Assembly: GCA_964016885.1 (NCBI GenBank)
Contig: OZ024744.1
Location: 9,920,001-9,984,000 of the forward strand
DNA: 64,000 nucleotides
DNA from: Eledone cirrhosa
Lineage: Eukaryota
Direction of reading: 5' to 3'
Position numbers and translations under genes: made by a program. Under the pieces are notes generated by a model, which did not search any database, had not been told where the DNA came from, and worked only from the letters and a program-made list of their open reading frames with translations. Positions 30,359 through 64,000 of this stretch are shown here, one piece after another (position 1 is the stretch's first letter; each line of letters begins with the position of its first letter).

Positions 30359-30404
<46 letters not shown>

Positions 30405-30408
<4 letters not shown>

Positions 30409-30746
30409 AAAAAGATGAAATCGAAAATGCAACTGGAGTCTTATTTTTTTTTAAATATATATATTTATTTGGTTCCTTTACTGGTTTCGCAGTTCTTCTG
30501 CTTTTCAAAAGTAGAGTTGAGATGGAGGGTCTATGGTTTTTCTCAGAAAAACCACAGAGCCTCCATCTCAACTCTACTTTTGAAAAGCAGAAGAACTGCG
30601 AAACGAGTAAAGGAACCAAATAAATATATATATTTTTAAAAAAATAAGACTCCAGTTGCATTTTCGTTTTCATCTTTTTTTCTTTATACTTTCACTCGTG
30701 TAGGACACCTCGGTTATTTTTCATTTTGTAAAAAAAACCTCACTTT

Positions 30747-42659: not shown

Positions 42660-45600
42660 GGGATTGTCCCTTTACCCATCTCCCGGGGACCCGTCGGACA
42701 AATGAAAATAAAATTAAAAATAAAAGCAAAAACAAAAACCATAACCTACATAAAAATAACCACTACCACAGTCACCAACAGTCTCCTAAACAGGAAACTT
42801 CTTCCTCTTTTTTAGCCATAATGAATCTGGCAAAAGAACTGGAAAAAAACATTCGAGCTATCACCCAGCACCACCCTCCACTATCACCCCACTGCACAAA
42901 CTCCCATTCCTGCCATTAACAAACAAACAAATTAACAACACACCAAAACAATTAAAACCATCCACTCTCGCCTCAACATTTTTGCTTAACGTCCAAGGCA
43001 TCAGCCCTTCCACCAATACTCAAAAATGGAAGATCAAATTCCTGGAGGACTGGGTTGATGTCCATCCAAACCACATCCCTTTCTTTGTCCTCACTGAAAC
43101 CCATCTCAGTAACCTCCACTTGGAAGCCGAGGTGAAAGTGAACAATTTCAAAGCCATCCGTGCTGATCGCGCTGGCAGAAGAAAGGGTGGGACTGCCATT
43201 TATGTCCATAATTCTTTCTCAACAGAGGCTATGAACATATTCACTAATGGATACTGCAAAGCAGTCACTGTATTCAGTCAAACCAACAACCTAATAGTAG
43301 TTGGGCTCTATAGGCCATCCCAAATGCCTGTACCATGCTTCAAGGAATGCCTCAACAGCATAAAGTGTTTCATCCAAGAGTGTCACCCTGACAACATCTT
43401 AATGATGGGGGACTTCAACCTCCCCGGAGTTGACTGGTCCACAAACAGCCTGCCACCAGGTTCTTCTGCCTCAACCTCTGACAGGGAAGCAGTGGAATCG
43501 CTTCTTGACTTCATGGATGATTTCTTCCTGTCCCAACTGGTGCTCGAACCAACGAGGTGCCACAAAAATGTCCTAGACTTAATTTTCAGCAATCACACTG
43601 ACAATATCCACAATATTGCAGTGGAGAAAACTCTACTCTCTGATCATGACATGGTTCTCTGTGATCTGAGATTCCACCGTCCAATATACAAACCCAATGT
43701 CATCTCTCCTGTCCATCCGTTTGACGCACAATGCAAACTGGGAAGCGATCAGTCATGATCTTGCACATGTCGACTGGTCCTTCACGCACACTCATACACC
43801 CACTAACATCAAAAAGTCCTGGCAGACATTTGTGGACACTGTTACAAACATATGTGCAAAACACACCCCATTAAGAACTATAAACAAATCTAAGAGCAGA
43901 ATCCCTAGAAATAGAAAAATGCTCATCAGGAAAATTAAGAGAACGAACAAAAAAATCAACAAGCTGAAATACTGTCAGCAGCAACACATCAACTTGACTG
44001 CCATTTCATCACTAGAGATTAAAAAACATAACCTCCAAAACAACATGATGTCTATCATCAACAATCAGAGAAGAGCTGAAGAGGCCTGGGCCATTGAGAA
44101 GATCAAACTCAATCCCAAAGTGTTCTTTTCATTTGCAAAAAAACACAAAATCACTGGCTCTACTGTTGGCCCTCTAATTGATGAAAATGGCACTCTTCAA
44201 GACAATGCTAAAACCATGGGTGAGATACTGCAGAAACAATACTGCTCTGTTTTTAGCAATCCTGATATGGCCGATCTGGGCTGTATCGGCGATGTTACTC
44301 CCCATTACACCTTATCGGACATAACGTTTGGCGCCCCTGATGTCTTAGCGGCAATAAAGGAAATCAAGCATAATTCAGCAGTAGGTCCCGATAGGTTCCC
44401 TGCTTGTGTCTTGAAGGCGTGTCAACACCAACTTGCATCTCCTCTTGCCAATCTGTGGCGGAACTCACTGGATGCTGGATATGTGCCAGAAAACCTTCTA
44501 TCCCAGTCTGTTGTCCCATTTTTCAAAAAAGGAAACAAATCCCTTGCCGTGAATTACCGTCCAATCTCACTCACCTCTCATATCATTAAGGTATTTGAGA
44601 GAGTGGTGAGATCGCGAATGACTCACTTCCTTGAGAGTAACAATATGCTGAACTCCAACCAGCATGGATTCCGTAATGGAAGGGATTGCCTGACGCAGCT
44701 ACTGCATCACTTTGATGACATTTTGAGAGCCTTGGGAGAGGGTTCCAACACTGATGTTATCTATCTTGATTTCAGCAAGGCCTTTGACAGGGTTGATCAC
44801 AACATTCTACTGAGAAAGCTGTCCAATATTGGTGTCACTGGAAAGCTGCTGCAGTGGATCAAGAGCTTCCTGTCAAACAGAACCCAACATGTTGTAGTTG
44901 AAGGAGTCAAATCCAGCCCAGCCAAAGTCAGTAGTGGGGTCCCACAAGGCACTGTGTTGGGCCCACTTCTCTTCATCATCTATATTAATGACATCACTGA
45001 CATCATCAAACACAGCAACATTAACATTTTCGCTGATGATTCCAAGCTCCAAAAGGTCATCAATGGCGTGGATGACCGGATAAGCCTTCAGTCAGACCTA
45101 CTGGCTGTTACCCAATGGGCGGAAAAGAACAACATGTTACTGAACGAAGACAAATTCGAATTGATCCACTTTGGAAAAGAGGATGCTCTGAAACTCCCGT
45201 ACTCCCTTCCCTCCGGTGAAACTCTCGTGGCATCTAACAACATCAGAGACTTGGGAGTTACCGTGGACAGCAACATAAGCTGGGCCACGCATATAAGCAG
45301 CAAAGTTGACATGGCCCGCAGAATGTGTTCCTGGATCCTCAGAACCTTCCAGTCGAGAGATTCCCACACCATTATCCTTCTCTTCTCTACTTTTGCTCGA
45401 CCACACCTTGAATACTGTTGTCCACTGTGGTCTCCCCACATGAAACAAAGTATCATGAAACTTGAAGCTCCCCAAAGGGCAATCACGAAAAAGATAGATG
45501 GCATGTCAGACCTTGACTACTGGGGTCGACTAGAAAAGCTGAAACTTTACTCACTCCAACGTCGCCGTGAGCGTTATATTATCTGCATGATGTGGAAAAT

Positions 45601-46001
45601 GTTTCATCATCACTGCCCAAATGATGTTGGCATCCCCTTCAAAATACACCCAAGGCTTGGGCCCCGTGCTATCCATCCCAAACAAAAATCTAAATCGCAA
45701 CTCATAACAACAATACGGCACAATTATTTCACCTCAATCGGCCCTGCTCTCTTCAACATCACACCAGACACGTCAAAACAGAAACTGACCACACAAAATT
45801 CAAGAAGTCTTTGGACAAATTCCTCCAAGTAATCCCGGACAAGCCACCCACACCCGGATATGTCTCTGCAAACAGTAATTCTCTTCTCGAATGGGCCATG
45901 GTGCCCAAATCCTGAATTGAAAGACTTCGCCAGGTGGTGCTATTAAGTTAGACATGGCCTGGGTCAATACTGGCCAAAACATTTCAAAGTTATTTCAAAG
46001 T

Positions 46002-46002
<1 letters not shown>
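42660..46002 (+). mobile_element. CR1-group LINE with near-intact ORF2 (APE endonuclease plus RT), frameshifted near 43725 and near the 3' end
   Basis: LTETHL, GGTAIY, MGDFN, LDLIF, SDH; NYRPISL, QHGFR, YLDFSKAFD, SGVPQGTVLGP, FADD, RDLGV, RPHLEY; tail (ATTTCAAAGTT)x2; flanked by TA repeats. Confidence 0.9.
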
Positions 46003-46050
<48 letters not shown>

Positions 46051-46097
46051 GTATATGTATATATATATATGTATATATATATATATGTATATATATG

Positions 46098-46128
<31 letters not shown>

Positions 46129-46165
46129 GTATATATATGTGTATATATATGTATATATATGTGTA

Positions 46166-46196
<31 letters not shown>

Positions 46197-46209
46197 ATAT
46201 ATATGTATA

Positions 46210-46284
<75 letters not shown>

Positions 46285-46409
46285 GTATATATATATGTAT
46301 ATATATATATATGTATATATATATATGTATATATATATGTATGTATATAGATATGTATATATATATATATATATATGCATATATATATGTATATATATGT
46401 ATATATATG

Positions 46410-46442
<33 letters not shown>

Positions 46443-46542
46443 GTATATATATATGTATATATATATATATGTATATATATATGTATATATATATATATGT
46501 ATATATATATGTATATATATATATATGTATATGTATATATAT
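46003..46542. repeat. (TA)n/(TATG) microsatellite
   Basis: Seen directly. Confidence 0.97.
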
Positions 46543-49473
46543 GTACTAGAAATGAGGAAGGCTCCAGAATCCTGGAATTCTGTGATGCAAATAACCTAAC
46601 TATCTGTAACACTAACTTCAAAAAACGTGACAATCACCTGATCACCTATAGATCCGGGGAACACACAAGCCAGGTAGATTATATCCTTACCAGAAGACGT
46701 GACAGAGTGTCTGTTGTAAACACTAAATCCCTCCCCCATGAAGAATGCACCTCCCAACATAGACTGATAATTAGCGACCTCATAGTCAGGACGAGACGTA
46801 CTCGACAGCAGAAGAGGACTATCCTCAGGAGAAAAATATGGAAGCTAAAGGACCCCACAGCCAGGAATAAATTTCAAAGCATATTACTTGATGCTTTCGA
46901 CAGTAAGGAAGAACATTTAGAGTCGGACAATATAGAGGGAGAGTGGGAATTTCTGAAAGCAAACCTGCTGTTGGCAACAGACGAAGTCTGTGGCTGGAGC
47001 AGGCCTGTAGGCAGGAGGAGAGTAACATGGTGGTGGAACAGTAAGGTGGAGGGGTCAATTAAGGCCAAAAAGCAGGCTTGGAAAGTATGGCGGGATGGGG
47101 GAAGTAGAGAAGACTATCAAGTGGCCAGGAGGGAAGCTAGGAGACAAGTGTACTTAGCAAGAAGGGAAGCTGAGGAAAGAAAGTTCAAGCATGTTCTACA
47201 ACGCGATGACCAAAAACGTGAGGTGTTCAGTATTGCTAGGCAATGCGTCAAGGAAAACCGTGATATTGTCGGGGAGAAGTGTGTACTAAACGACGATGGC
47301 ACACTTGCCATCACCGACGCTGATAAGAAGGTAGCTTGGAAGTGTCACTATGAAAGGCTACTAAATGAGGAGAATAAATGGGAGAAAGACAGTCTCCCCC
47401 ATATCGACCCAATAGAGGGACCAGCAGTGTTAGTCGAGGGGAGTATAATAAGTAAGGCAATCAAGGATATGAAGACGGGTAAGGCGGCTGGGCCTTCGGA
47501 AATAGTTGCTGAGATGCTGAAGGCATCTGGCACGGTGGGACACACCATGGTCACCCGCATAGTTAACCAAGTCGTACAGAATGGGGTTGTTCCGAAGGAC
47601 TGGCATAGCAGCATCATCATTAACTGTTATAAGGGTAAAGGAGACGCCCTAGATAGTAACTATAGAGGCATTAAATTAATCGACCAGGTCATGAAGGTCA
47701 CGGAAAAAGTAATAGCGCAACTAATCAGAGAGAGAATTGACCTAGATGAAATGCAGTTCGGGTTTGTGTCAGGCAAAAGTACCACAGACGCTCTTTTCAT
47801 AGTACGACAACTACAGGAGAAGTACCTAGCTAAAGGTAAACCCCTCTACTTAGCTTTTGTCGACTTGGAGAAAGCCTTCGACAGAGTCCCCCGCTCCATT
47901 ATCTGGTGGGCTCTTAGATAACTAGGCGTTGACGAATGGCTTGTGAGGGCTATACAAGCCAAGTATAAAGAAACAGTCAGCAAGGTTAGAATTAACAACG
48001 AATATAGTGAAGAGTTTAGCGTAAAAGTTGGCGTCCATCAGGGCTCTGTTCTCAGCCCACTACTATTTATTATTGCCCTTCAGGCTATAACAGAGGAGTT
48101 CAAGACAGGCTGCCCATGGGAACTCCTATACGCAGACGACCTGACACTCATAGCAGAATCAATGGCCGAGCTAGAGAAGAAATTCCAAACATGGAAGTAC
48201 GGCTTAGAGTCAAAAGGACTTAAAATTAACCTGGCTAAGACCAAAGTACTAGTTTGTAGGAAAGAAAACAAGGCGGCGGTCCCTTCTGGGAAATGGTCGT
48301 GCTCGGTGTGTAGGAAAGGCGTAGGTAGAAACTCCATTTTATGTCCTAAATGCAAAGTATGGGTGCATAAAAGATGTAGTGGGATCACAGGTAAGCTAAC
48401 TAAGAACATAGATTTTACATGTGGCCGGTGCTCTGGTGCAATAAGTAGCAGCAAGTGCCCACAAAATACTAGCTCTTTCAATTGCGCAGAGGGTTCTATA
48501 GAAATAGTGGACAGCTTCCGTTACCTGGGCGATAAAATCATCAGTGGGGGAGGGTGCTCTGAAAGTACTGTAGCTAGAGTCAGAACTGGTTGGAAAAAGT
48601 TCAGAGAGCTTATACCACTATTAGCTGCTAAAGGGTTCTCCCTAAAAATGAAAGGTGTACGATGCCTGCATACGAACAGCAATGCTGCATGGCAGTGAGA
48701 CCTGGGCATTGTGTGCAGAGGATATACGCAGACTAGAGAGGAACGAAGCTTGCATGCTCCGCTGGATGTGTAACAGTAATATACGTGAACGGCAAAGCAT
48801 AAACGAACTAAGGAAAAAATTAGAGATAAGAGGGATCAGATGTTGTTTACTCGAGAGAAGGCTACGTTGGTATGGACACGTGATGCGCATGAAAGTCAAT
48901 AGCTGTATAACAAAGTGCAGGGCAATAAAGATAGACGGTAGTCACGGAATAGGCAGACCTAGAAAAACCTGGGACGAGCTGATAAACTCCGACATCATAC
49001 ACTTACACCTCTCCAAGACAATGTCACTGGACCGAGACCTTTGGCGATACTCAGTAACAGAGAAGACCCGCCTAACCCCAACCACATTTACAGTGTGGGA
49101 CTGGGAGGTTTTTACCGTGTTGCCTACACGGCCACATTACAGCGTGGACTGTGTGTTTTTTTTTCGTGACACCTACACGATCTCATTTGTTTCGGCCTGG
49201 ATGTTGTGGCACCAACATAACTTTACATTGAAAGGGGCGGTGTGGATGGGGTGGGGGTGGTGGGACGGGGGTGTATTTTGTTAGAGATGCCTACTGACTG
49301 TAGTAGGTTTTATTTTGTATTTAGGTAAGGCGGGTCTTCTCTATTACTGAGTACCGCCAAAGGTCTCGGTCCAGTGACATTGTCTTGGAGAGGTGTAAGT
49401 GTGTGAGGTCGGAATTTATCAGCTCGTCCCAGGTTTTTCTGGGTCTGCCTACTCCATGGCTACCGTCTTTATT
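46543..49473 (+). mobile_element. 5'-truncated RTE LINE (EN C-terminus, RT, PHD-like finger) with an inverted 3' segment at 49073-49473
   Basis: [42 protein letters not shown]; 49328-49473 is the reverse complement of ~48925-49072. Confidence 0.92.
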
Positions 49474-50030
49474 AATAAATAATGTAAAAACAAGCTAAAA
49501 TTCGTTGTCGATATTCCTATCGTATCTTTCTACCAAACCTGGTTCCTCGTGGCAACAACACAACAACTCTCTAAATATTCTTCTCTGCTAAATTCGAATT
49601 TATACCTAAACCAAATTGGTGACAATATATCTACACCAAATTTGTGACCCTCGGCGATTAAGTATGAAAACGCAGCCTATTTGAATTCGCCAGTCGTTTT
49701 AACGGAAATGTGGAGTGGCTTAACATTTGGAATATTCGAATCGGGTTTCTAGACTCGCTTAGCGTAAGTCCATAAAATTCATAATATTCCATTTGTTGAA
49801 GCACGCGACCTACACAATATTTCTGTTATAACTTTCATGTTAACACAAGTAACTCACGCATACAGACGAACACAAAAATACTACACAAAAAGAAATAGTT
49901 TTTTCGACGTCTAACAAAAAATTTCTCTTTTGGATTGAAAATTATTATTGCGAGCATAGTTTGATAAAAACAAAAAAAAAAAAAGAATTTCTCTGGATAT
50001 AGAATTTTGCTCGGCTTATTCAGTTTTTCC

Positions 50031-50798
50031 ATGGCACAGAAATGGAGTATTTCCATTTCGAATCAATACCTTTCACTAAAATCGGGCAATTGGACTGATC
50101 AAATTCACATTCATGCCAGTTTTTACAAATCCAAAAAACGAAATTATCCTATTTCCAATCAGAAATATAGAACGCGCGCGTTAATCTTATCATTACTCAT
50201 AATCGGTTGTGTTGAATTAAATCCTGGACCTGAATTTGAATTCAATGAGACTGACAAAGATCAAAACATTGATAAAGAGAATGAAAAACGGAGAAAAACT
50301 GCAATTAGGAATAGGGAGTACAGACAACGGAAAGCTGCAGAAATAAGAGAAAAAAGACAATCAGACGAAGCAAAATTTAAAAATAAGGCATGGCAAAAAG
50401 CATATAGACTGAGAAGAGGCGATGAGGGCAAAAGTCAGGAGGCATCGTATCAAAACGTGCGCAGACTGAGGGCAGGTGATGAGGGCAAAAATCAGCATGC
50501 ATTGAATCAAAAAGAGCACAGAGTGAGAGCAGGCGATGAGGGCAAAAGTCAACAGGCATTGTATCAAAAAGCACACAGATTGAGAACAGGAGAAGAAGGA
50601 AAAGAAAAAGATGCCAGATATTTTTCACATTATTATTTTACAAATGCACGGTTGATACAACAAAAACACAAATTTTTGTACAGAAAAAACCGAATTCAAC
50701 AATTTAAAGACATTCGCATGCAAAGGGAAATCATGTTACACAAATTCACAAAATCATATTTGGCTTCGAAAAAAGAAAAACCAAAAAATCGGGCATAG
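50031..50798 (+). pseudogene. N-terminal ORF segment with 2A-like motif and 19-aa basic repeats
   Basis: ALILSLLIIGCVELNPGP (motif at 50205-50231); RLRAGDEGK repeats (57 bp). Confidence 0.65.
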
Positions 50799-51099
50799 TA
50801 TAGGGAGAAATTCAAGCAGGGCCTTGAAAAAGTTTCTAAAATCTACAGAGAAGCACAGGGAATTCGAAATTTCATATTTAATGAATTGAAAAAAACAATG
50901 GCTTCAGTTTATGCACACATCAAATTAGCTAAGAAGGAGGGGTTGACTGCATACTGGGGGGAAATATTTTACCATACTTTCACAAATGAACACTTTCTAT
51001 TCCTAAAAAGTACAGTTGATTTTTTTTCCTCTAACACAACTTGAAAACCACAAATTTCTGACTGATGACTGTCCAACAAATGAATGCAGGTGTAAAGAT

Positions 51100-52045
51100 G
51101 GTGATGAGCCAAGTGAGGGAGGTGAGCAAAGTGAGAAAGGTGCACAAGGAGAGGGAGGTGAGCAAAGTGAGAAAGGTGCACAAAGAGGGGGAGATGAGGG
51201 AGGTGCACAAAGAGGGGGAGATGAGGGAGGTGCACAAAGAGGGGGAGATGAGCCAAGTGAGACAGGTGCACAAGGAGAGGGAGGTGAGCCAAGTGAGACA
51301 GGTGCACAAAGAGGGGGAGATGAGCCAAGTGAGACAGGTGCACAAAGAGGGGGAGATGAGCCAAGTGAGGAAAGTGCACAAGGAGAGGGAGGTGAGCCAA
51401 GTGAGGAAGGTGCACAAGGAGAGGGAGGTGAGCAAAGTGAGGAAGGTGCACAAGGAGAGGGAGGTGAGAAATGTGCACAAAGAGGGGGAGATGAGCCAAG
51501 TGAGAAATGTGCACAAAGAGGGGGAGGTGAGCAAAGTGAGAAATGTGCACAAAGAGGGGGAGATGAGCCAAGTGAGAAATGTGCACAAAGAGGGGGAGAT
51601 GAGCCAAGTGAGGAAGGCAAGCAAAGAGGGGGAGATGAGCCAAGTGAGGGAGGTGCACAAAGAGGGGGGGATGAGACAGGTGCACAAAGAGGGGGAGATG
51701 AGCCAAGTGAGACAGGTGCACAAAGAGGGGGAGGTGAGACAGGTGCACAAAGAGGGGGAGATGAGCCAAGTGAGACAGGTGCACAAAGAGGGGGAGATGA
51801 GCCAAGTGAGGAAGGTGCACAAGGAGAGGGAGGTGAGCCAAGTGAGAAATGTGCACAAAGAGGGGGAGATGAGCCAAGTGAGGAAGGCAAGCAAAGAGGG
51901 GGAGATGAGCCAAGTGAGGGAGGTGCACAAAGAGGGGGGGATGAGCCAAGTGAGAAATGTCCACAAAGAGGGGTAGATGAGCCAACTGATGGAGGTGAGC
52001 AAAGTGAGACAGGTGCACAAAAAGAGGGGGGTGAGCAAAGTGACC
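51100..52045 (+). repeat. Frame-preserving 33/24-bp purine-rich tandem array (GAQRGGDEPSE)
   Basis: About 30 units inside ORF 51016-52158; unit lengths are multiples of 3. Confidence 0.9.
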
Positions 52046-52162
52046 AGGAAGATTTTGATGGCAGAAAATGTACAGAACTTCTGACTTTGGCTAGATTGTG
52101 CAAATTTGGTCCCCCCATCAACTTGCCCAGATCCCACTGCATGACTAAAGCTAGCTAAACGA

Positions 52163-54876
52163 ATGCACAAGGCCATACATGAACTTTCACCTGATTTGAC
52201 TGTGTCCCAAATTCGGAAAAAAATGGAAATCTTTGAGCAGTGTAAAGGATTCCATAGGGACAACATCTATTGCATAGGACAGTCTGACTGCACAAATGGA
52301 CTTGAACTGATTCGAAGTATGGCTCCTCACTCTCCTTGCATCCGTACACTTCTGAGATGTGTGTACAAAGTGAGATCAGTCTGTGTCTGGCTAGACTCCT
52401 ATGACATTTCAATCTTGGAAGGAAATTGGTCAATGTTTGATGATCTAGTAAATCCCCAAAACATGTCCAACAATCTGCTAAGCCGTTTGAATGAGATAGT
52501 GGAAAATGAAAATGAAAGCTTGCATTCAGAATCCTCAATCATGGCCAATTTTGCATCCATTATCAAACATTTTAATAAAGAGATTCAAAAAATGAAAATC
52601 AACTCCTGTGACATTTGCAAACAACGAGAATTAGATGCTAAACTCAAAGTCTGGGAGGATTGGAGCCCTTTGACAAATCCCTATCTCCTGGAAACCATTC
52701 AACAAAACTACTCTCTACCATGTACGATTTGCTCTACATGTAGAAATAGTCTTGTCAAAAAGTCGATACCATCATTGGCTTCAATCAATGGCCTAGAAGT
52801 GGTCAAAATTTCAAATGTGTTGTCAAAGTTGAACATGTATGAGCAGATTTTGATCCAAATGGCCAAATGCTTCATCAATGTCATTAAATTGTCAACCTAT
52901 CGTTTCAAAGGTGCACCATCAGATCTAGTAGCTGCTATTAAAGGAATAGCAACTCACATGCCACTACCAGTAGAAAACACAATCAATCATGTAATGAAAA
53001 AACTTCCATCGAATCAAAATGATGCATTTGAAATAATTGTTGATAGTCTTCCAACTAAAAAGGGCACAATTTGGCGATCGCTAGTGAATATGCAAAATGT
53101 CTTTGATGCCTTGGAGTGGCTGAAAAACAACAATGACATTTACAATGACATTTTGATAGACAGAACCACAAATTTAGAGGACATTGTTACATGCACTGGT
53201 GAAAAATCAATTTTCCACACATTCTCACACAAACTGGTGCTGAAACAGTCTATGAACACCATACTGTACAGCAAATCAAGCCTGCACTCCCAAATCAAAA
53301 GGACCTTGAACTGTTTCGCATGAAACGAGTTGAAGGTACTCTTCTTCCAGACAATGATCCAAACCTGGATCTGATGTGCTTCCCCCACTTATTCCCTAAA
53401 GGAAAATTTGGAATGATGCACATGAACAGACCCCATGGTAGAGTAAAGCCATACATGTTCATCAGAAACAGACTCAGACATGAGGACCCCCGGTTTCGTA
53501 GAGACATTCAGTACATTCTCTACAATTTGGACAAGGCTGACAAAAGAGCACTAGATTCTGGCATTTATGCCATAATGAAATCACTCAAAAGTCCAAAATT
53601 GACACTTGCTCAATTTTATAAAAGATTGGAAGACAATGATGAACAATTGGAAAGTGGTTTGTCAATGATGATGGCGAATGTTCGTGGAACAAAGCCATTT
53701 TGGGAATGCAAGTGTTCCGACTTGAATGCCATAGATGAGAAATTCGGTCCTGCCCATTTGTTTATCACTCTTTCATGTACTGAATACTTTTGGCCAGGCT
53801 TGAGGGAATTTTTGGAAAAACTCAATAAAGACATTGCAAATGTTGAAACAAGGCCGATAGGGAATCTCTGTGCAAATGATGTTGTGGCTGTCAGTGAGTA
53901 CTTTCACCATCGTTTTAGTGCTGTTTTTCATGATGTAATTTTAAATAAAAAAGGCCCATTTGGGGAAATTATTCATTACTTTTGGCGACTCGAGTATCAA
54001 CAATGTGGTGCCCCTCACATTCACCTTAAAGCCTGGGTTCGGGACAGTGTAATTTTTGACAAAGATCCTAAAGAAAAAATCAAGCAATTTATTGAACGCT
54101 GCATTACTTGCCGGCTACCATCCCCTGTGGCCAGCCCAAACTTGGAAAATCTCGTTAGACGGTTCCTAGTCCATACTTGTGGCAAAGCATGCTGGAGAAT
54201 AGTGGGGAGAGGGAAAAATTTGCGTAAAAAATGCCGTTTTGGTTTTGCACGTGCAGTGGGGCCATTTCGATTTTTCTCAGTTTCTGAAAGTATCAAATCA
54301 CGAAAAAATGGTAATGGGACAAAAAAACTGTACCAATTGGAAAGAAAAGAATCAGAAAAGTACATAAATGACTACAATCCATGTTTACTTCTAGCCTGGC
54401 AAGCAAATATAGATGTGCAATACATTGGTGAGAATAGTATGATTTTGAATAGATATGTCACCTGCTATCAGACTAAGGCTGAAAAAAATGAGGCTGGGGG
54501 AGTGTGGGCGAATCTGGATCATTCCAAAACAAAATATGGGAAATACAAAAGTACTGGACTGCAATTGCTTGGGAAAAGGGATACAGGAGGGTATGAAGCT
54601 GCTGACAAACTTTTGGGACATCATTTTTACGGGTCATCAGATCATGTTATTTGGGTAGGTGCAGACATTCCCAGTAGGCGCGGCCGCAGATTGAAATCTC
54701 AAAATGATCTCGATGAACTGAGTGAAGACTCAATGGACTTGTTCTACGAGAACATGGTGGAAACTTTTTACAAAAACCGGCCAAAATTCCTGGAAGATTC
54801 CTCCTTATATGAAGTTGCCAGCAAATATGAGAAGACACAAAAAAACCTGTTGACAAAGATGTGGCTACAAAAATGA
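52163..54876 (+). pseudogene. Helentron N-terminal Cys-rich domain plus HUH Rep endonuclease
   Basis: CDIC..CSTC..VFDALEWLKNNNDIY; FPHLFPKG; motif I PAHLFITLSC; motif II YFWRLEYQQCGAPHIH; motif III YVTCYQTKAE. Confidence 0.88.
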
Positions 54877-56770
54877 AATTGCTCAATGACAAGGGGTATT
54901 TTCATAGTGTAAAAGAGCGGGTAGTTAAAGCACCAAATATACAGCTCAAAAATGACACAAAAGAACGTTATTACTACAATCTTCTAATGCTGTTCAAACC
55001 CTGGTGCGATGAGGACAAAGATTTATTTGGGGGCTGCAAAACATTTGAAGAGTCCTTTCATCTGTGTGCAAACAATTTGCCAGATATGGTGAATTTTCAA
55101 AATGTGAGGAAAAAAATCACTGATGCAGTTGAGATAGGGAAGAGGTTGGAGAAGGAGGGTAAAAAGGAGGGAGAGGTCGGAGAAGGGGGGGAGAAGGGGG
55201 CAAGAGATGAGGCTGGTATTGATGTTCCCCAAATTCGAGATGTAGATGAAACTGCTCTACAGACAAAAGAAACACAGCTTAATACAGATCAAATATCCAT
55301 ATACAATCTAATTGTATCAGCAATTGAAAAACAGGAATTGCATTGGAATTCGGTAAAACCACTACCAAGGTGCAGATGTGATGATTGCCCACAATTTCTC
55401 AAATTTGTCTCTGGTGTAAGAGGTACAGGAAAAAGTTTTCTCATTGATATAATTTCTGACAAAGTTACTCAAATTTGTTGCAAGAGAAATGGGGCCCCAG
55501 TAGTCATTTGTGCACCAACTGGTATGGCTGCTTTCCAAATCAAGGGGACTACTTTGCACAGGCTCTTGAAACTCCCAGTCCAACATAGAAAATCACCATC
55601 ATATAGGGAATTAGAAAGTGATGAACTCAAAATTTTGCGATCCACTCTAGAGGGTGTCCGTCTGATAATTATCGATGAAATAAGTATGGTCAGTCATCTG
55701 ATGTTGGCATTTATCCATAGGCGTCTAGATAAGATTTTTGGGGACCAGAGTCAAATGACCAGCCCTTTTGGAAAAATAAATATTCTGGTTTTTGGCGATC
55801 TACTTCAACTTCCACCAGTAAATGAAAAAACACTCTTTTCCAGTATTTCTGCATATGATGCTAAAAGGACTGGTCTGGGAATAAGTGGGCAGTCACTGTG
55901 GAAATTTTTCGACTATGATGAGCTCACTATAAACATGCGGCAAAAAATGACAGTGAAAACTATTCTGAAATGTTGGGTCGAATAAGAATAGGATCACCTA
56001 CAGACATGGACATCAAGACTTTGAGTGAACATTGCCTATTCCCAGATCGCAGGGCAACAATGAGAGAGGCAACTGAGAAACTAATGCAACTTTGCACATT
56101 ACCTAGTCAAAAATTTGTCTGTATTTTGCCTGTCAATGAATCTAGATGAATTCAACAAGGAAATGCTTAAGCATGCCAACATCAGTACAGTTGTAGTTAT
56201 TGCTGAGGACTCAGGAATGCGCCAGAAAGGTCGTAAAAAAAAGTCAAAGTCAAACAAATTTTCCAAACCAAAAAAGGCATCAGACACTGCTGGACTTGAG
56301 ACTGAATTGCAAGTTGGAGTTGGGGCCAGAGTAATGCTGAGACGAAACATTAATTTGGTGAAGGGGCTATGTAATGGTGTCATGGGAACAGTGCAAAGCA
56401 TGGTCAATGGAAAAGATGGGAAAATGGGATAAATCATTGTGGAATTTGATCACATGATAGGCAATGACATTTCAATAGAAAAGGTGACTGCAGACTATGA
56501 AATCTCTCCTGGTGTGTGTGTGACATGAAAACAGTTCCCCCTAAGCCTTGCCTATGCCATCACCATCCATAAATCACAGGGAATAAGTGTTGATGGGGTC
56601 ATTGCTGATCTTGGTCCTCTGTTGTTCGCAGATGGAATGGCCTATGTTGCACTTTCACGAGCTAGGAAACTCTGCAATGTCTATTTGATAGATTTTAACC
56701 CACGAACCCTGATCATGAGTGACAAATCTGCTTGGGAAGAGTACAACAAATTGCGTTCTACAGAAATAAA
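54873..56770 (+). pseudogene. Pif1-family helicase with frameshifts and stops
   Basis: GVRGTGKS, APTGMAA, IIIDEISMV, FGDLLQLPPV, LTINMRQ, GARVMLRRN..GLCNG, QFPLSLAYAITIHKSQG, AYVALSR. Confidence 0.92.
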
Positions 56771-56821
56771 CCACCATGCATGGCTTCTGAATCTTGCATG
56801 CCAAAAAAACGATCATGGCAA

Positions 56822-57750
56822 ATGTTGAATGTGGACAACCCTTCTGAATATGCTCCTCCTACCAAAAAACCTAAATTAGCTACAATTTCCATGCTCACTC
56901 CCATGATTAGACTACAAAATAAGGAAAATGCCTGTTTTGCCAATTCCACACTTCAAGCTATTGCCCAATTGCCCAAACTTTGGGAAACTTTGTTGTCTAC
57001 CCAATTACTTAGTCCAGTTGTTCAGGAAATAGCAAATATTGTCACACCAGGGGATCGGGATGTTTCAATTCTGCGAAGATTAATTGGGGGCAGATTTAAG
57101 GATGGTGCTCAGCAATGTGCCCATGATTTTTTGAAAAATATCTACCCACATTTTCCACCAAATGCACAGCAAATATTCCAATTTCAAGTGAATGAAACAC
57201 TAAGATGCACTAAAAGTCATGAAAATGAATGCCCACGTTTGAATGATCAAATTTGTACTTGCACACATAGACCTGGATGTGGACTCGAAACTCACAAAAC
57301 ACCAGAAATTAAATCAGACTTGACATTGCATCCTATTCAAGGCCCTTAACAGTTTCGTACTTTACTTGTATCAAATGACACCATAAAACAATGTGACACC
57401 TGCACCACCAATACAGAGAATAAAACAACCATCAGGAGAGATTTCCCACCCACAATGCACTACCTTGTAGTATCAATCAACCGATTCCTCATAACCAGTG
57501 GTCAAGAAACTCAAATACATTGTGATTTATTGAATTTCAGTTCAAAACGCCAGCAGTTTTTGATACCAATTTCCAACTTCAATCAGCAATTGTTCACACA
57601 TTAGGTTCCACATCAGGAGGTCATTACACTTGTTTAATTCACAAAGATGGTGACAAATGGGATGAAATTAGTGACACGTGCATAACCAAAAGGCACCCAA
57701 AATTTCCACCTAAATTGCCAAATATTGTTTTACTTTTTAAAAAAAAACTA
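56822..57750 (+). pseudogene. Ubiquitin-specific protease (C19)-like domain
   Basis: Cys box LQNKENACFANSTLQAI; QQCAHDFL; CDTC; YLVVSINRF; His box AIVHTLGSTSGGHYTCL..KWDEISD at ~57585-57675. Confidence 0.75.
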
Positions 57751-58232
57751 TAGGTCCAATATCACTCCAGAATGCTCTGTCCTACACATCCAAGTGAACT
57801 CTATTAGACATTAAAATAATATAGAGTATAAAAATCTGTACTACTATATGAAAAATTTGTTTCATTTGTCAAGCAACTGTGTCAAAGGACAGTGCCGAAG
57901 TATGCAGTAGGTCTGCCCAATGTAACTGTTGTTTTGTAACATGAGCAATTTTTCATTTATATGTAGTACTACAGAAAATTTGTTACATTTGTCAAGCTAC
58001 AGTGTCAGAGGATAGTGCCGAAGTATGCAGTAGGTCTATCCAATGTATCTGTTGTCTGCCAAATCAGTCAAATGTCACTAAAAGCCAGGTGGTTGATAAC
58101 AACTTCTATAAGATTAATTACATGCTCTAATGATCTGAATCCTCGTCGCACCGTTGGCACTACAAAGCTGTGCAAAGTAATACAATAATTTTTGCCCAAG
58201 TATTTTTTATTAATCATTTATTTCTAAATTAA

Positions 58233-58587
58233 GGATAAAGTGCCCATTCGAGGCACAAAACCGGAAAAACAGGGGAAGAGTCTCTTTGCAAGGCTACAGA
58301 AAATAGCGGAAAAGCACCACTGTACACCCATTTTCTACAGTGGTGTCATTCCACGTCCACAAAGTGTAATTGAAAATAAAAATGACTTGGGCAAGAGAAA
58401 TTCTCGTTTGGAAAAGTTTAATTACTGCATGAAAGAAATGATTCAAAAATTGAACTTGCCCAATCTTCACAACATTGAAAATTGGTCAAAATTTGACAAA
58501 TCTGACTTCAAACCAGATATGATTCATTTGAACAATGTTGGAAATCTTAAATTTACACAAATTTTTGCCAATGTTTTTGCCACCTGA
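58233..58587 (+). pseudogene. SGNH/GDSL hydrolase-like C-terminal fragment
   Basis: FYSGVIPRP..RLEKFN..DFKPDMIHLNNVG fits block V (DxxH..G); possible acceptor tttctaaattaAG just upstream. Confidence 0.55.
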
Positions 58588-59277
58588 GGTAATTACAAGG
58601 GGAGGTAATTACGAGTCTCTCTCTATTATCTAATATATTTCAAATTGTATTTTTAACTAAATTCATTTATCATAGTCTAATATTTTAAAAATAGGTGAGT
58701 ACTCCACGATGATGACCCATGTCCCCGGAGCCATCCAGATATCATGTGACCATTTTTGGTTCGCGGTGTCCACATGATATCTGGATGGCCCTTTATACTA
58801 ATTAGTCATTAATCTGCCTGAAAATTATACCAGATCATTCTGATTATTGGCTTGAAATCTTTTACAAAATTAGTATGAGCAACTAAGAGGTCATCGATAG
58901 AAATAGAATTACTTTTTGAAGTTTTCATGCACAGCATTTTTGGGGATTTTAAATAAAAGTTAATATCATAATTCTTATTTTGTATCCCCACATTGCAGAT
59001 ACAGAGAAACATGACAATCCTATATAAAGGTCGTAGACAGCAGTATCAGTTTTTATCCGTAACACCATTGAAATGCACAAGTTTCACCAATTCACTATTA
59101 TGCACTAATCATCTCAAAAGCATTCATGATTTACTAGCTTTGTCATTAAGCCAGTTGCCTCAACTAGATTGCAATTATACTCAAAAGAACTTTAAAATGT
59201 CAATCACTTGTCAGTAATTCACTATGATCATTTAATTATTAGATAGTTGTTGCTTGCATTGCCTTAAAAAATAGTAG

Positions 59278-60377
59278 ACCAGATAGAAAAATGCGTACAG
59301 CAAAAAAAAGTAATATTGTTGGAATATAAACCTTTAAAAATACAGGAGAAGAAACTAAAATAAAACTTTAAAAGAATAGGACAAGAAACTAAAATAAAAC
59401 TTTAAAAGAATAGGACAAGAAACTAAAATAAAACTTTAAAGAATTGGACAAGAAATAAAAAATTTTACAATAATATTAGTGGCAAAATTTTTTTATTCGT
59501 TTCCTATGCTATGCCCCAGTATCTTCTTGATTAGTGCATAATAATTGTCATGCTCTCATTGTGCGTTGCCCCTGAGCGGTTGGTTCTGGTTGGGGTTGAT
59601 TGGTTGAGCAGTTCTGCTCTGTCAGAATGACCATTGCAAGAAGAATTGGCCAATGCAGCTGCAGGTTTCCTCCAAGAATGCACTTCTGGTCCCGCAACAC
59701 CAGACGAAGATGGAGAAGACGACCGGGACAAGATGTCGACTCTGACCACCGACTACGGCACCTCCCTCAAACACCGGTCCTCCCTCCCTCTGTCCCGTCA
59801 TCCCTCCAGTCCTCCTGCTCCCCCTTCCTGTACCAGAAAGCTGTGGCACGCATTCATCTGGACTGCCGGACTTGAACTCAAGGACAAGATGCAAGGAGAA
59901 GATGGACGAGTTGGTCAAGATCAAGGATGAGCGGGACGACAAGACCGTCCGCTGCTGCTCAAGATCTGTGCTCATGGGCCCATGGGTCCATTCACATTAT
60001 GCATGACACATGAGGCGTGGCGCCGAATGATGAAATAGGGGTATGGTTATGGCTCAATTGGTGTTCAAACCAGGATCAAATGATCCCCCGGTCTGACGAC
60101 GACCTCTGAATGTGGAACCCAGAGCCTATGAATGTGGAACTCGATTGTTTACCAATAAAAATGTTGCCACTAATATTATTGTAAAATTTTTTATTTAGTT
60201 TCTTGTCCTATTCTTTTAAAGTTTTATCTTAGTTTCTTGTCCTATTCTTTTAAAGTTTTATCTTAGTTTCTTGTCCTATTCTTTTAAAGTTTTATTTTAG
60301 TTTCTTGTCCTGTATTTTTAAAGGTTTATATTCCAACAATATTACTTTTTTTTGCTGTACGCATTTTTCTATCTGGT
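59278..60377. mobile_element. 1.1-kb foldback-type DNA transposon with ~210-bp TIRs containing ~33-bp tandem repeats (possibly CMC/EnSpm-like)
   Basis: 59278-59485 is the reverse complement of 60164-60377; termini ACCAGATAGAAAAATGCG; GC-rich interior. Confidence 0.8.
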
Positions 60378-60469: not shown

Positions 60470-63400
60470 CGGAATTCTGGAGAGTTGAAGAGAGAAAAAT
60501 CTGGACGCTCAGCGACAGTGCCAAAGATAAAGACAAATTCACCTCGTGGACGAGAATGCGAGCATTCCTCTTTGTTTCGGCCGCGGATGGCTAACATAAC
60601 CCCATCTCCCCCCGCTCCCCACCGCTCCCACCCTCCAAACGCAATCCAAAACTTCAGAGTTGGTACCATGAATGTAGGCACCTTAAAGGGTCGCTCTAAA
60701 GAGGTTGTAGAAATGCTTGAACGTAAGGAGGTCGATGTTTGTTGTATTCAAGAGACCAGGTGGAGGGGTGGGTCTGCTAGATTCATTGTGGGTAAAAAAC
60801 GATGCTATAAACTTTTCTGGGTGGGAAATGACAATGGGCTGGGTGGAGTAGGAATCATGGTAGCAGAAAAGTGGGCAGATAAGATAATAGACCTAAATAG
60901 AGTGAACGACAGAATAATTAAAATAAGACTTGTCCTCAATAGAACTACGGTGACAGTAATATCTGCGTACGCACCCCAATCCGGACTGCCTGGCACTATA
61001 AAAGACATATTCTATGAGACACTGATGCTCACTACCTCCCAAATAACCGATAGTGACTATATAATTATTGCAGGCGACCTAAATGGTCACGTTGGACAAC
61101 ATTGTGACGGCTATGATGGAATCCATGGAGGCTCTGAGATTTGGTACTAGAAATGAGGAAGGCTCCAGAATCCTGGAATTCTGTGATGCAAATAACCTAA
61201 CTATCTGCAACACTAACTTCAAAAAACGTGACAATCGCCTGATCACCTATAGATCGGGGGAACACACAAGCCAGGTAGATTATATCCTTACCAGAAGACG
61301 TGACAGAGTGTCTGTTGTAAACACTAAATCCCCCATGAAGAATGCACGTCTCAACATAGACTGATAATTAGCGACCTAATAGTCAGGACGAGACATACTC
61401 GACAGCAGAAGAGGACTATCCTCAGGAGAAAAATATGGAAGCTAAAGGACCCCACAGCCAGAAATAAATTCAAAAGTATACTACTTGATGCTTTCTACAG
61501 TAAGGAAGAGCAATTAGAGTCGTACAATATAGAGGAGCAGTGGGAATTCCTGAAAGCAAACCTGCTGATGGCGGCAGACGAAGTCTGTGGCTGGAGCAGG
61601 CCTGTAGGCAGGAGGAGAGTAACATGGTGGTGGAACAGTAAGGTGGAGGAGTCGATTAAGGCCAAAAAGCAGGCTTGGAAAGTATGGCGGGATGGGGAAG
61701 CAGAGAAGACTATCAAGTGGCCAGGAGGGAAGCTAGGAGACAAGTGTACTTCGCAAGAAGGGAAGCAGAGGAAAGAAAGTTCAAGCATGTTCTACAACGC
61801 GAGGACCAAAAACGTGAGGTGTTCAGGATTGCTAGGCAATGTGTCAAGGAAAACCGTGATATTGTCGGGGAGAAGTGTGTACTTCATGATGACTGCGTAC
61901 TTGCCATCACCGACGCTGATAAGAAGGTAGCTTGGAAGTGTCACTATGAAAGGCTACTAAATGAGGAGAATAAATGGGAGAAAGACAGTCACGCCCACAT
62001 CGACCCAATAGAGGGACCAGCAGTGTTAGTCGAGGGTAGTATAATAAGTAAGGCAATCAAAGATATGAAGACAGGTAAGGCGGCTGGGCCTTCGGAAATA
62101 GTTGCCAAGATGCTGAAAGCATCTGGTACGGTGGGACACACCATGGTCACCCGGATAGTTAACCAAGTCGTACAGAATGGGGTTGTTCCGAAGGACTGGC
62201 ATAGCAGCATCATCGTTAACTGTTATAAGGGTAAAGGAGATGCCCTAGATAGGAGTAACTATAGAGGCATTAAATTAATCGACCAGGTCATGAAGGTCAC
62301 GGAAAAAGTAATAGCGCAACTAATCAGAGAGAGAATTGAACTAGATGAAAGGCAGTTCGGGTTTGTGTCAGGCAAAAGTACCACAGATGCTCTTTTCATT
62401 GTACGACAACTACAGGAGAAGTACCTAGCTAAGAGTAAACCCCTATACTTAGCTTTTGTCGACTTGGAGAAAGCCTTCGCCAGAGTCCCCCGTTCCATTA
62501 TCTGGTGGGCTCTTAGAAAACTAGGTGTTGACGAATGGCTTGTGAGAGCTATACAAGCCATGTATAAAGATACAGTCAGCAAGGTTAGTATTAACAACGA
62601 ATATAGTGAAGAGTTTAGCGTAAAAGTTGGCGTCCATCAGGGCTCTGTTCTCAGCCCCCTACTATTTATTATTGCCCTTCAGGCTATCACAGAGGAGTTC
62701 AAGACCGGTTGCCCATGGGAACTCCTATACGCAGACGACCTAACACTCATAGCTGAATCAATGGCCGAGCTAGAGAAGAAATTCCAAACATGGAAGCACG
62801 GCCTAGAATCAAAAGGCCTTAAAATTAACCTGGCTAAGACTAAAGTTCTAGTTTGTAAGAAAGAAAATAAGGTGGCGGTCCCTTCCGGGAAGTGGCCATG
62901 CTCTGTGTGTAGGAAAGGCGTAGGTAGAAACTCCATTTTGTGTCCCAAATGCAAAGTATGGGTGCATAAAAGATGTAGTGGGATCACAGGTAAGCTAACT
63001 AAGAACATAGATTTTACATGTGGCCGGTGCTCTGGTGCAATAAGTAGCAGCATGTGCCCACAAAATACTAGCTCTTTCAACTGCGCAGAGGGTTCTATAG
63101 AAATAGTGGACAGCTTCTGTTACCTGGGTGACAAAATCAGCAGTAGGGGGGTGGGGGTGCTCTGAAAGTACAGTAGCTAGAGTCATAACTGAATGGAAAA
63201 AGTTCAGAGAGCTTATACCACTATTAGCCGCTAAAGGGTTCTCCCTAAAAATGAAAGGCAGGTTGTACGATGCCTGCATACGAACAGCAATGTTGCATGG
63301 CAGTGAGACCTGGGCATTGTGTGCAGAGGATATACGCAGTCTAGAGAGGAACGAAGCTTGCATGCTCCGCTGGATGTGTAATAGTAATATACGTGAACGG

Positions 63401-64000
63401 CAAAGCATAAACGAACTAAGGAAAAAATTAGAAATAAGAGGGATCAGATGTTGTTTACTCGAGAGAAGGCTACGTTGGTATGGTCACGTGATGCGCATGA
63501 AAGACGATAGCTGTATAACAAAGTGCAGGGCAATAAAGATAGACGGTAGCCACGGAATAGGCAGACCCAGAAAAACCTGGGACGAGCTGATAAATTCCGA
63601 CCTCACACACTTACACCTCTCCAAGATAATGTCACTAGACCGAGACCTTTGGCGGTACTCAGTAATAGAGAAGACCCGCCTTACCTAAATACATAGTAAA
63701 ACCTACTACAGTCAGTAGTCATCTCTAACAAAATACACCCCCGTCCCACCACCCCCACCCCATCCACACCGCCCCTTTCAATGTAAAGTTATGTTGGTGC
63801 CACAACATCCAGGCCGAAACAAATGAGATCGTGTAGGTGTCACGACAAAAAAACACACACTCCACGCTGTAATGTGGCCGTGTAGTCAACACGGTAAAAA
63901 CCTCCCAGACCCACACTGTAAATGTGGTTGGTGTTAGGAAGGGCATCCAGCTGTAGAAAACCCGCCAGACAGTCCTATGCGAGCAAGATAATCACTCTTG
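60470..64000 (+). mobile_element. Near full-length RTE LINE (APE, RT, PHD-like finger) with several frameshifts; 3' UTR runs off the window
   Basis: FRVGTMNVGTL, CCIQETRW, SAYAPQ, AGDLNGHVG, LLYADD; stop at 63688; highly similar to 46543-49072 and 28122-29535. Confidence 0.93.

Follow-up and report, generated by a model that had tools for sequence, protein, structure and literature searches.

An HLE2 Element in the Eledone Window

The window analysed here, 64,000 nucleotides of the forward strand of contig OZ024744.1 (positions 9,920,001 to 9,984,000; assembly GCA_964016885.1) from the 3.0 Gb genome of Eledone cirrhosa, contains a dead, rearranged and 5'-truncated element of the HLE2 (Helitron2-type) class without endonuclease. 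Its plus strand carries, in this order, a 2A-like peptide, DUF6570, Rep (Helitron_like_N), a PIF1 helicase, pieces of a UCH domain and a GDSL-like piece, as found by a six-frame listing and a Pfam scan of 13 pieces (Table 1). With a probability of roughly 0.6 we take it for a dead HLE2 copy of a lineage that inserts between A and T (A|T), whose Rep-helicase (RepHel) protein is continued in frame by a USP domain and whose long 3' foldback likely serves as terminal signal; all functions attributed to the element are ones that we infer.

An earlier interpretation (hereafter the sequence-only reading) had listed the collinear pieces 2A-like, Rep, Pif1, USP and SGNH, the lack of an apurinic/apyrimidinic (AP) endonuclease after the helicase, and inactivation by stops and frameshifts, and all three statements held up. 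Pfam matched no endonuclease, neither in the 13 pieces of the window nor in the sister family B, of which an open 2230-aa protein was scanned, and against subfamily A2 the window copy falls into seven tblastn segments with changes of frame and stops. The UCH domain is split into pieces with E values of 3e-4 and, at the Pfam cut-off, 4e-5, and the GDSL-like piece (E 7e-4) lies under the cut-off. The proposed span of 49487..58801 in contrast proved too short. The right end is at 60376, where CTGG is followed by T, and on the left the copy is truncated at 49467, because other copies extend about 1.1-1.3 kb further, up to a TC end; no 5' end motif occurs within the window. The element ends, namely 5'-TC with a hairpin, CTRG-3', the A|T target and a foldback of about 1.1 kb, had been overlooked.

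Table 1. Parts of the HLE2 copy in the window (positions are those of the window).
Feature	Position	Strand	Remarks
HLE2 remnant, subfamily A1	49467..60376	+	Homology to other copies begins at 49467 and goes on upstream in them
Part missing from the window copy (about 1.1-1.3 kb)			TC end and 5' hairpin; LINE (long interspersed nuclear element) sequence adjoins the break
First piece of RepHel frame	50031..50798	+	Leader, 2A-like peptide, 57-bp (19-aa) repeats
2A-like peptide RALILSLLIIGCVELNPG then P	50175..50231	+	Gly-Pro junction 50228/50229; Cys at Asp position
36-bp tandem array	51105..51989	+	Encodes acidic Gly-rich repeat; not in A2, differs in length among A1 copies
DUF6570	52757..53167	+	PF20209, E 3e-16
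Rep (Helitron_like_N)	53458..54027	+	HUH motif FWRLEYQQxGAPHIH; PF14214, E 7e-25
Pif1 helicase	55404..56730	+	Frameshifts and stops; PF05970 (E 2e-23), PF21530, PF13538
USP/UCH (C19) in pieces	56909..57750	+	PF00443; Cys codon 56933, His codon 57622
SGNH remnant	58124..58587	+	End of block III exon, 57-nt intron (58177-58233), DxxH-bearing last exon; blocks I and II, including the catalytic-Ser block, gone
Displaced segment	58624..59058	+	Located before the cargo gene in master copies; retains the first 16 NADAR codons only (59011-59058)
Foldback inner arm	59279..59492	-	Inverted copy of terminus including CTGG
Foldback loop (about 660 bp)	59493..60156		No Pfam match in three frames
Outer arm	60157..60376	+	34-bp repeats; 3' end CTGG then T
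11-bp subterminal inverted repeat CAACAATATTA	60334-60344		In outer arm

Families and the RepHel-USP Protein

A genome query with Rep gave 110 matches (from 105 scored among 828 candidates). Among the matches scored, family A occupies about 20 places at 85-97% identity, while family B forms a second group at 57-60%. Family A subdivides into A1, which includes the window copy (core 97% alike), and A2 (86-87%), both long copies of which have one stop in common. Open frames of 2230-2245 aa were found in seven of the 110 matches, all of family B, whose copies are about 99% alike; the 2230-aa frame that was translated and scanned unites DUF6570, Rep, Pif1 and UCH. Family C was recovered for its 3' part only, at 40-45% identity in a UCH search (85 matches among 104 candidates).

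The USP domain is a predicted deubiquitinase fused in frame after Pif1. In A2 it matches PF00443 with an E value of 2e-10 and, as best hit in PDB, USP36 (E 5e-5); a Cys box and a His box are present, and scores of 41 and 39.6 bits for PF00443 lie above the cut-off of 23.9. Between A1 and A2, Rep has a ratio of nonsynonymous to synonymous substitution rates (dN/dS) of 0.135 and UCH one of 0.43. The claim of a C19-like deubiquitinase joined to RepHel was thus correct, but the fusion itself is already known: UCH is one of 20 stable cargo domains in HELIANO, enriched in HLE2 subgroups c and d, there as a separate open reading frame (PMC11417382), and fusion proteins exist in insects. UCH and Pif1 occur together in 11 of 77 protein-search matches. 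The helicase precedes UCH in all five UCH-Pif1 proteins that were scanned, including those of Rhodnius, Bemisia, Linepithema and a psyllid; in three of the 11 (P0021, P0073, P0081) the USP is N-terminal, and in the public RepHel protein P0029 it follows an endonuclease. These varied positions suggest repeated capture. A look into other invertebrates thus returned RepHel-UCH proteins. Weak searches gave no homologue of the SGNH or of the first NADAR exon discussed below. No close relatives turned up in metagenome or viral contigs, where alignment scans returned distant OTU-bearing relatives and unrelated helicases, and Rfam gave 0 matches.

Some copies deserve separate mention. A nested cluster (L069-L072, C28:136.455-136.495M) holds three B ends, one A2 and one A1 within 40 kb, and its A2 element sits within an A1 cargo intron. 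In the B copy L036, a 3' fragment of a LINE and AT-rich filler separate USP from the foldback, as they do in other B copies. Loci L311 (C1:37.30M) and L312 (C1:105.02M) hold an A2 derivative that is young, non-autonomous and about 3.7 kb long, with a 221-aa frame including the 2A-like peptide, and both loci have a second 5' end upstream; about 35 near-identical matches of this derivative suggest a recent burst. Past the USP stop of the window copy, direct repeats of about 100 bp (57791-58063) occur that are also found, expanded, in A2.

Element Ends, Target Sites and the 3' Foldback

Copies start with TC and a hairpin and finish with CTRG. Across 68 regions, 20 of which had been picked by the end pattern (8 as pairs, 12 as apparent singles), 55 of 56 5' ends are preceded by A, and all 61 terminal 3' ends read CTRG followed by T. 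The sequence-only reading had suggested defining the ends from empty sites, and two were obtained, one from the A2 element in the A1 cargo intron and one from a B copy in a minisatellite. Both show insertion at A|T without duplication, and both also fit boundaries shifted by one base. A repeat of 10-11 bp connects the 5' end with a site 30-45 bp before the 3' end. The A1 5' end has 297 matches in the genome.

The final 1.1 kb form an inverted repeat, both arms of which include the terminus, and the loops are unrelated between A1, A2, B and C. The arms measure about 215 bp in A1, 190 bp in A2, 210-220 bp in B and 135 bp in C, and an inner arm is present at 53 of the 61 terminal 3' ends. The A1 end motif has 816 exact genome matches, and among the first 100, 70 stand in opposed pairs less than 1.1 kb apart (hand count). 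Subfamily-specific bases are present in both arms, while none of 23 private substitutions in 21 integrated A1 copies is mirrored. The arms therefore likely became alike while the lineage replicated, rather than once a copy had been inserted, and gene conversion between arms of integrated copies was rejected on the same count. A foldback mobile on its own, comparable to a miniature inverted-repeat transposable element, was rejected as well: all eight paired modules without a listed 5' end kept element context. The A2 loop contains a 205-aa frame (L032:5471-6085) with a Cys-rich stretch that looks PHD-like by eye; Pfam gave no PHD match in this frame.

Two explanations of the foldback were compared. 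According to the first, it is a neutral relic of a reversed self-insertion of the element end, carried along because it lies inside the element ends, and the ordinary HLE2 signals (5' hairpin, asymmetric repeats, CTRG) suffice for transposition. At its end the inner arm indeed reads CTRG|T, as would result from insertion at A|T; self-insertion was proposed for Fusarium elements (PMC5148889), and single-arm copies exist (C1a, C2d, C3a, L293, L297, L303). However, arm identity reaches 96-100% inside single copies of A1, A2 and B and 86% in those of C, compared with about 60% (a difference of about 40%) from family to family and 45% for shuffles. Furthermore, the context upstream of the inner arm is conserved in all three families, and independent deletion derivatives retain both arms. 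Non-autonomous derivatives keep the 5' end plus the foldback, and the shortest consists of 14 bp of the former and the foldback. We thus regard the relic as somewhat unlikely and favor the foldback as terminal signal, which we infer to pair on the displaced single strand.

Class Assignment

As in Helitron-like elements, target sites are not duplicated, and Rep with its HUH motif lies upstream of Pif1 in one protein. Rep is preceded by DUF6570, an HLE2 marker according to HELIANO (PMC11417382). The subterminal repeats expected of HLE2 are present as well, with a length of 11 bp in family A and 10 bp in B. Within the Rep motif, FWR is present, while the diagnostic residue in G-x-P-H-x-H is Ala, where the rule expects Ser (HLE2) versus Leu. 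The target site departs from the T|T insertion usual for HLE2. Together with 5'-TC and CTRR-3', the A|T target is that of HLE1, whereas the remaining HLE1 traits (a short 3' hairpin; neither 5' hairpin, inverted repeats nor DUF6570) are not matched. Since an endonuclease is missing, the element is by definition not a Helentron, contrary to its first classification, and Helentron membership was rejected on the basis of the window pieces and the 2230-aa sister protein.

A tree of Rep and helicase proteins had been proposed to place the lineage. A2 and B join endonuclease-free proteins bearing OTU or UCH (support 0.91), apart from the endonuclease-bearing Helentrons, and the element groups with DUF6570-bearing proteins in a tree that holds no curated HLE1 or HLE2 reference. 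We regard the lineage as an HLE2 variant with three new traits: its ends are Helitron1-like and include a long foldback, the leader of family A contains a 2A-like peptide that is likely under selection, and subfamily A1 carries the NADAR-SGNH gene. An HLE2-type protein with HLE1-like ends would be misfiled if annotated by its ends, and in the cited papers such a combination is described from Phytophthora, while here it occurs in an animal.

The 2A-Like Peptide

The leader of the window copy encodes LLIIGCVELNPG followed by P. All eight intact motifs read GCVELNPGP, with Cys replacing Asp, and leave the class A core D(V/I)ExNPGP unmatched. Between A1 and A2 all 29 residues up to the Gly-Pro junction are identical with nine silent codon changes, while identity is 21 of 37 residues upstream and 142 of 187 downstream, so that 61 amino-acid changes in the 224 flanking codons stand against none in the 2A-like stretch. 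The peptide is likely under selection. Because 29 residues fit the ribosome tunnel, a function of the nascent peptide is likely, and the odds are about even that it would skip or lower output. The 2A-like peptide of the sequence-only reading thus gained signs of selection, but carries Cys at the Asp position and is missing from family B. Similar motifs occur in two further HLE2 proteins, P0033 and P0072, among 81 scanned. A literature search by paired terms found nothing on 2A-like peptides in Helitrons, and the word Helitron is not in the main text of two 2A surveys (PMC12338488, 10.64898/2026.06.17.732966), whose supplementary tables may differ.

The NADAR-SGNH Cargo Gene

The RepHel-USP frame terminates after USP, and the SGNH lies outside it. 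Its source is a separate gene 1-3 kb downstream of USP that is kept in four A1 copies and, in A1 master copies, fuses NADAR to SGNH in five exons. Removal of four GT-AG introns (55, 217, 54 and 57 nt) from copy C2c leaves an open frame of 335 aa. The first three exons match PF08719 at positions 4-67, 82-115 and 118-162 with 18.7, 15.8 and 13 bits (cut-off 35.1); the NADAR genome search reached 30.7 bits. By eye, the master copies show what we take to be the SGNH blocks GDS, PGA and GSND, then DMxH (the latter in copies other than C2c); in NADAR, two Glu-bearing motifs are visible, while an Asp that we assume to be conserved seems replaced. A single-sequence fold of the SGNH reached a mean pLDDT (predicted local distance difference test) of 40 and was not used. 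Contigs aligned to the cargo gene contained no joints, which speaks neither for nor against its splicing. Based on these matches, the gene is predicted to encode an ADP-ribose remover joined to an ester cutter, and it is confined to A1. Of 11 A1 copies fetched, four carry NADAR-SGNH (one split by nested elements), five a partial SGNH, one a 22-residue scrap and one neither, and no A2, B or C copy fetched gave a match. The window copy keeps SGNH from block III onward plus 16 NADAR codons in permuted order. The last SGNH exon has at least 150 genome matches (150 scored of 305 candidates), the best of which belong to a derivative of about 3.6 kb that is non-autonomous and shortened by deletion (11 loci in one mapping, 20 in another).

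The sequence-only reading had seen in these parts one virus-like polyprotein, 2A-Rep-Pif1-USP-SGNH, and with it a new rolling-circle lineage. The collinear window pieces, the selection on the 2A-like peptide and the single frame of Rep, Pif1 and USP speak for this. However, the frame stops past USP, SGNH is a separate spliced gene fused to NADAR, A2, B and C lack SGNH, B lacks the 2A-like motif, and UCH in HLE2 is already catalogued; a polyprotein that goes beyond Rep-Pif1-USP is consequently very improbable. Two findings had been named in advance as speaking against the proposal, namely other copies without C19 or SGNH and an architecture already catalogued. SGNH is absent from A2, B and C and the UCH cargo is listed, whereas C19 persists in A2 and B. 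Likewise, the combination is described in part: RepHel-UCH is catalogued and SGNH is tied to fish Helitrons (PMC4021074), but NADAR in a Helitron was, as 2A, not found in the literature by paired terms, nor do the cited sections of the Ectocarpus paper (PMC12477816) make this link.

Another explanation holds NADAR-SGNH and the 2A-like peptide to be inert passengers acquired from LINEs or from the host. Oyster Tx1 ORF1 and Ectocarpus Gypsy contain NADAR (PMC12477816), CR1 elements contain esterases (PMC4021074) and LINEs contain 2A peptides. Moreover, the first NADAR exon is found at five places in the whole genome, and SGNH block I is gone from the abundant 3.6-kb derivative. In contrast, the 2A-like stretch changed by silent substitutions alone, the four introns of copy C2c are clean and its frame has stayed open, and the genome search found no host paralogue of the NADAR exon. 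The search of PDB with the NADAR exon gave no significant match, and scans of metagenome and viral sequence (160 loci) gave none for NADAR-SGNH. We consider the passenger explanation possible, but the less probable one.

Proposed Mechanism

How strand displacement ends and second-strand synthesis proceeds in HLE2 elements is poorly known. Under the interpretation favored here, RepHel would nick the 5' TC end and peel one strand off. The last 1.1 kb would then fold and place the terminal CTRG in a stem of 135-220 bp, marking the stop. This stem could prime second-strand synthesis, and repair within it would prevent the arms of the replicating lineage from drifting apart. The USP would shield RepHel from ubiquitin-dependent turnover, and the 2A-like peptide of family A would act in the ribosome tunnel by skipping or by lowering RepHel output. 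A1 would have captured a spliced NADAR-SGNH gene dispensable for transposition; NADAR reverses guanine ADP-ribosylation (PMC11125620) and, if active here, would strip ADP-ribose from guanine in exposed single-stranded DNA. The more far-reaching version, in which the released strand self-primes from CTRG and one branch adds StopGo control and removal of host ADP-ribose marks by NADAR, appears improbable to us. We know of no description of hairpin priming for Helitrons.

Several observations count against the favored interpretation. At eight of the 61 terminal ends an inner arm was not recognised, so that elements may do without the foldback or lose it once inserted. A long inverted repeat is missing from ten metagenome contigs that carry related helicases, though the ends may lie off these contigs. 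A flip-flop of the parvovirus type (as in adeno-associated virus, AAV) is disfavored, with 5' hairpin loop orientations of 297 vs 6 and one inverted A1 3' loop. The tree comprises 47 of 79 proteins, is midpoint-rooted and contains no named HLE1 reference; the 32 proteins left out for want of anchor motifs include the sole RPA-bearing HLE1 candidate. Mutagenesis found the Asp of P2A and F2A to be essential, and high activity was seen in only 139 of 1969 variants with one substitution (10.64898/2026.09.24.754024), one of them with Gly at a core position. Finally, the NADAR exons (E 0.002-0.13) and the SGNH piece each stay under the Pfam cut-offs on their own. Family B offers open-frame copies 99% identical to each other together with a precisely bounded foldback, and its role at the end is therefore testable by deletion. 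The presence of NADAR in a transposon that moves as single-stranded DNA would be a hint at ADP-ribosylation of transposon DNA by hosts; here, NADAR is a predicted enzyme of one subfamily.

Flanking Sequence

Decayed LINEs with reverse transcriptase frames lie on both sides of the element (43670-49466 and 60600-64000). The two nearest resemble one family, which we take to be RTE-like, and at 49467 an inverted piece borders on the 5' break. Further upstream, a short repeat that has an inverted partner (30376-30462 and 30626-30688) matches the flank of copy C18 and is probably an unrelated small transposon.

Comparison with Known Systems

Regarding proteins, the HLE2 elements with UCH in HELIANO subgroups c and d (PMC11417382) share DUF6570, RepHel, the UCH cargo and the lack of an endonuclease with the lineage described here. 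They differ in that UCH lies in separate reading frames, mostly in lungfish and axolotl, whereas here it is in frame; Table S11 of that paper lists neither GDSL/SGNH nor NADAR, and its HLE2 elements usually insert at T|T. Helentrons with OTU or VTD (PMC9741609) likewise combine an HLE2 transposase with a cysteine deubiquitinase. Zebrafish VTDs are active, and a role in preventing degradation was proposed (PMC9741609). In contrast to Helentrons, this lineage lacks the AP endonuclease, carries its USP at the C-terminus and falls in a separate clade; its predicted USP represents a third deubiquitinase class in these elements, beside OTU and VTD. The texim genes of fish Helitrons (PMC4021074) are intron-containing SGNH genes as well, while in A1 the SGNH follows RepHel and forms one gene with NADAR. 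It did not significantly match the SGNH of the fish Helentron in P0080, so that independent capture is likely. The 2A-like peptides of LINEs (10.64898/2026.06.17.732966) resemble ours in a Leu-rich stretch ending in VExNPGP near the N-terminus of a transposon protein, but here the host is a DNA transposon and Cys replaces Asp.

Regarding ends, Helitron2 (PMC3627910) also lacks an endonuclease and has a 5' hairpin and an asymmetric repeat of 10-11 bp, 30-45 bp from the 3' end. Its short 3' hairpin is not seen here, where the foldback of 135-220 bp including the terminus takes its place, and the TC/CTRR ends and A|T target are Helitron1-like, unlike Helitron2. A long foldback is not described in the accounts of termini in the sections cited here, with no search aimed at it and neither Repbase nor Dfam covered, and nothing closer on ends appears in the cited parts of PMC8788227 or 10.1101/2025.11.06.686955. 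The closest described ends are those of the proto-Helentron of Phytophthora (PMC4067079) and of HLE2-reverse, FoHeli3-5 of Fusarium (PMC5148889, PMC11417382). Both have an HLE2-type RepHel without endonuclease, a 5' stem-loop and short inverted repeats, as found here, and the proto-Helentron, which ends in CTAG, shares the A|T insertion without duplication. Its 5' end is TT, compared with TC and an ambiguity of one base in our boundary, and no element of its kind was found among the 404 genomes of HELIANO (PMC11417382). The lineage described here further differs from these elements in its animal host, its USP fusion and its long 3' foldback.

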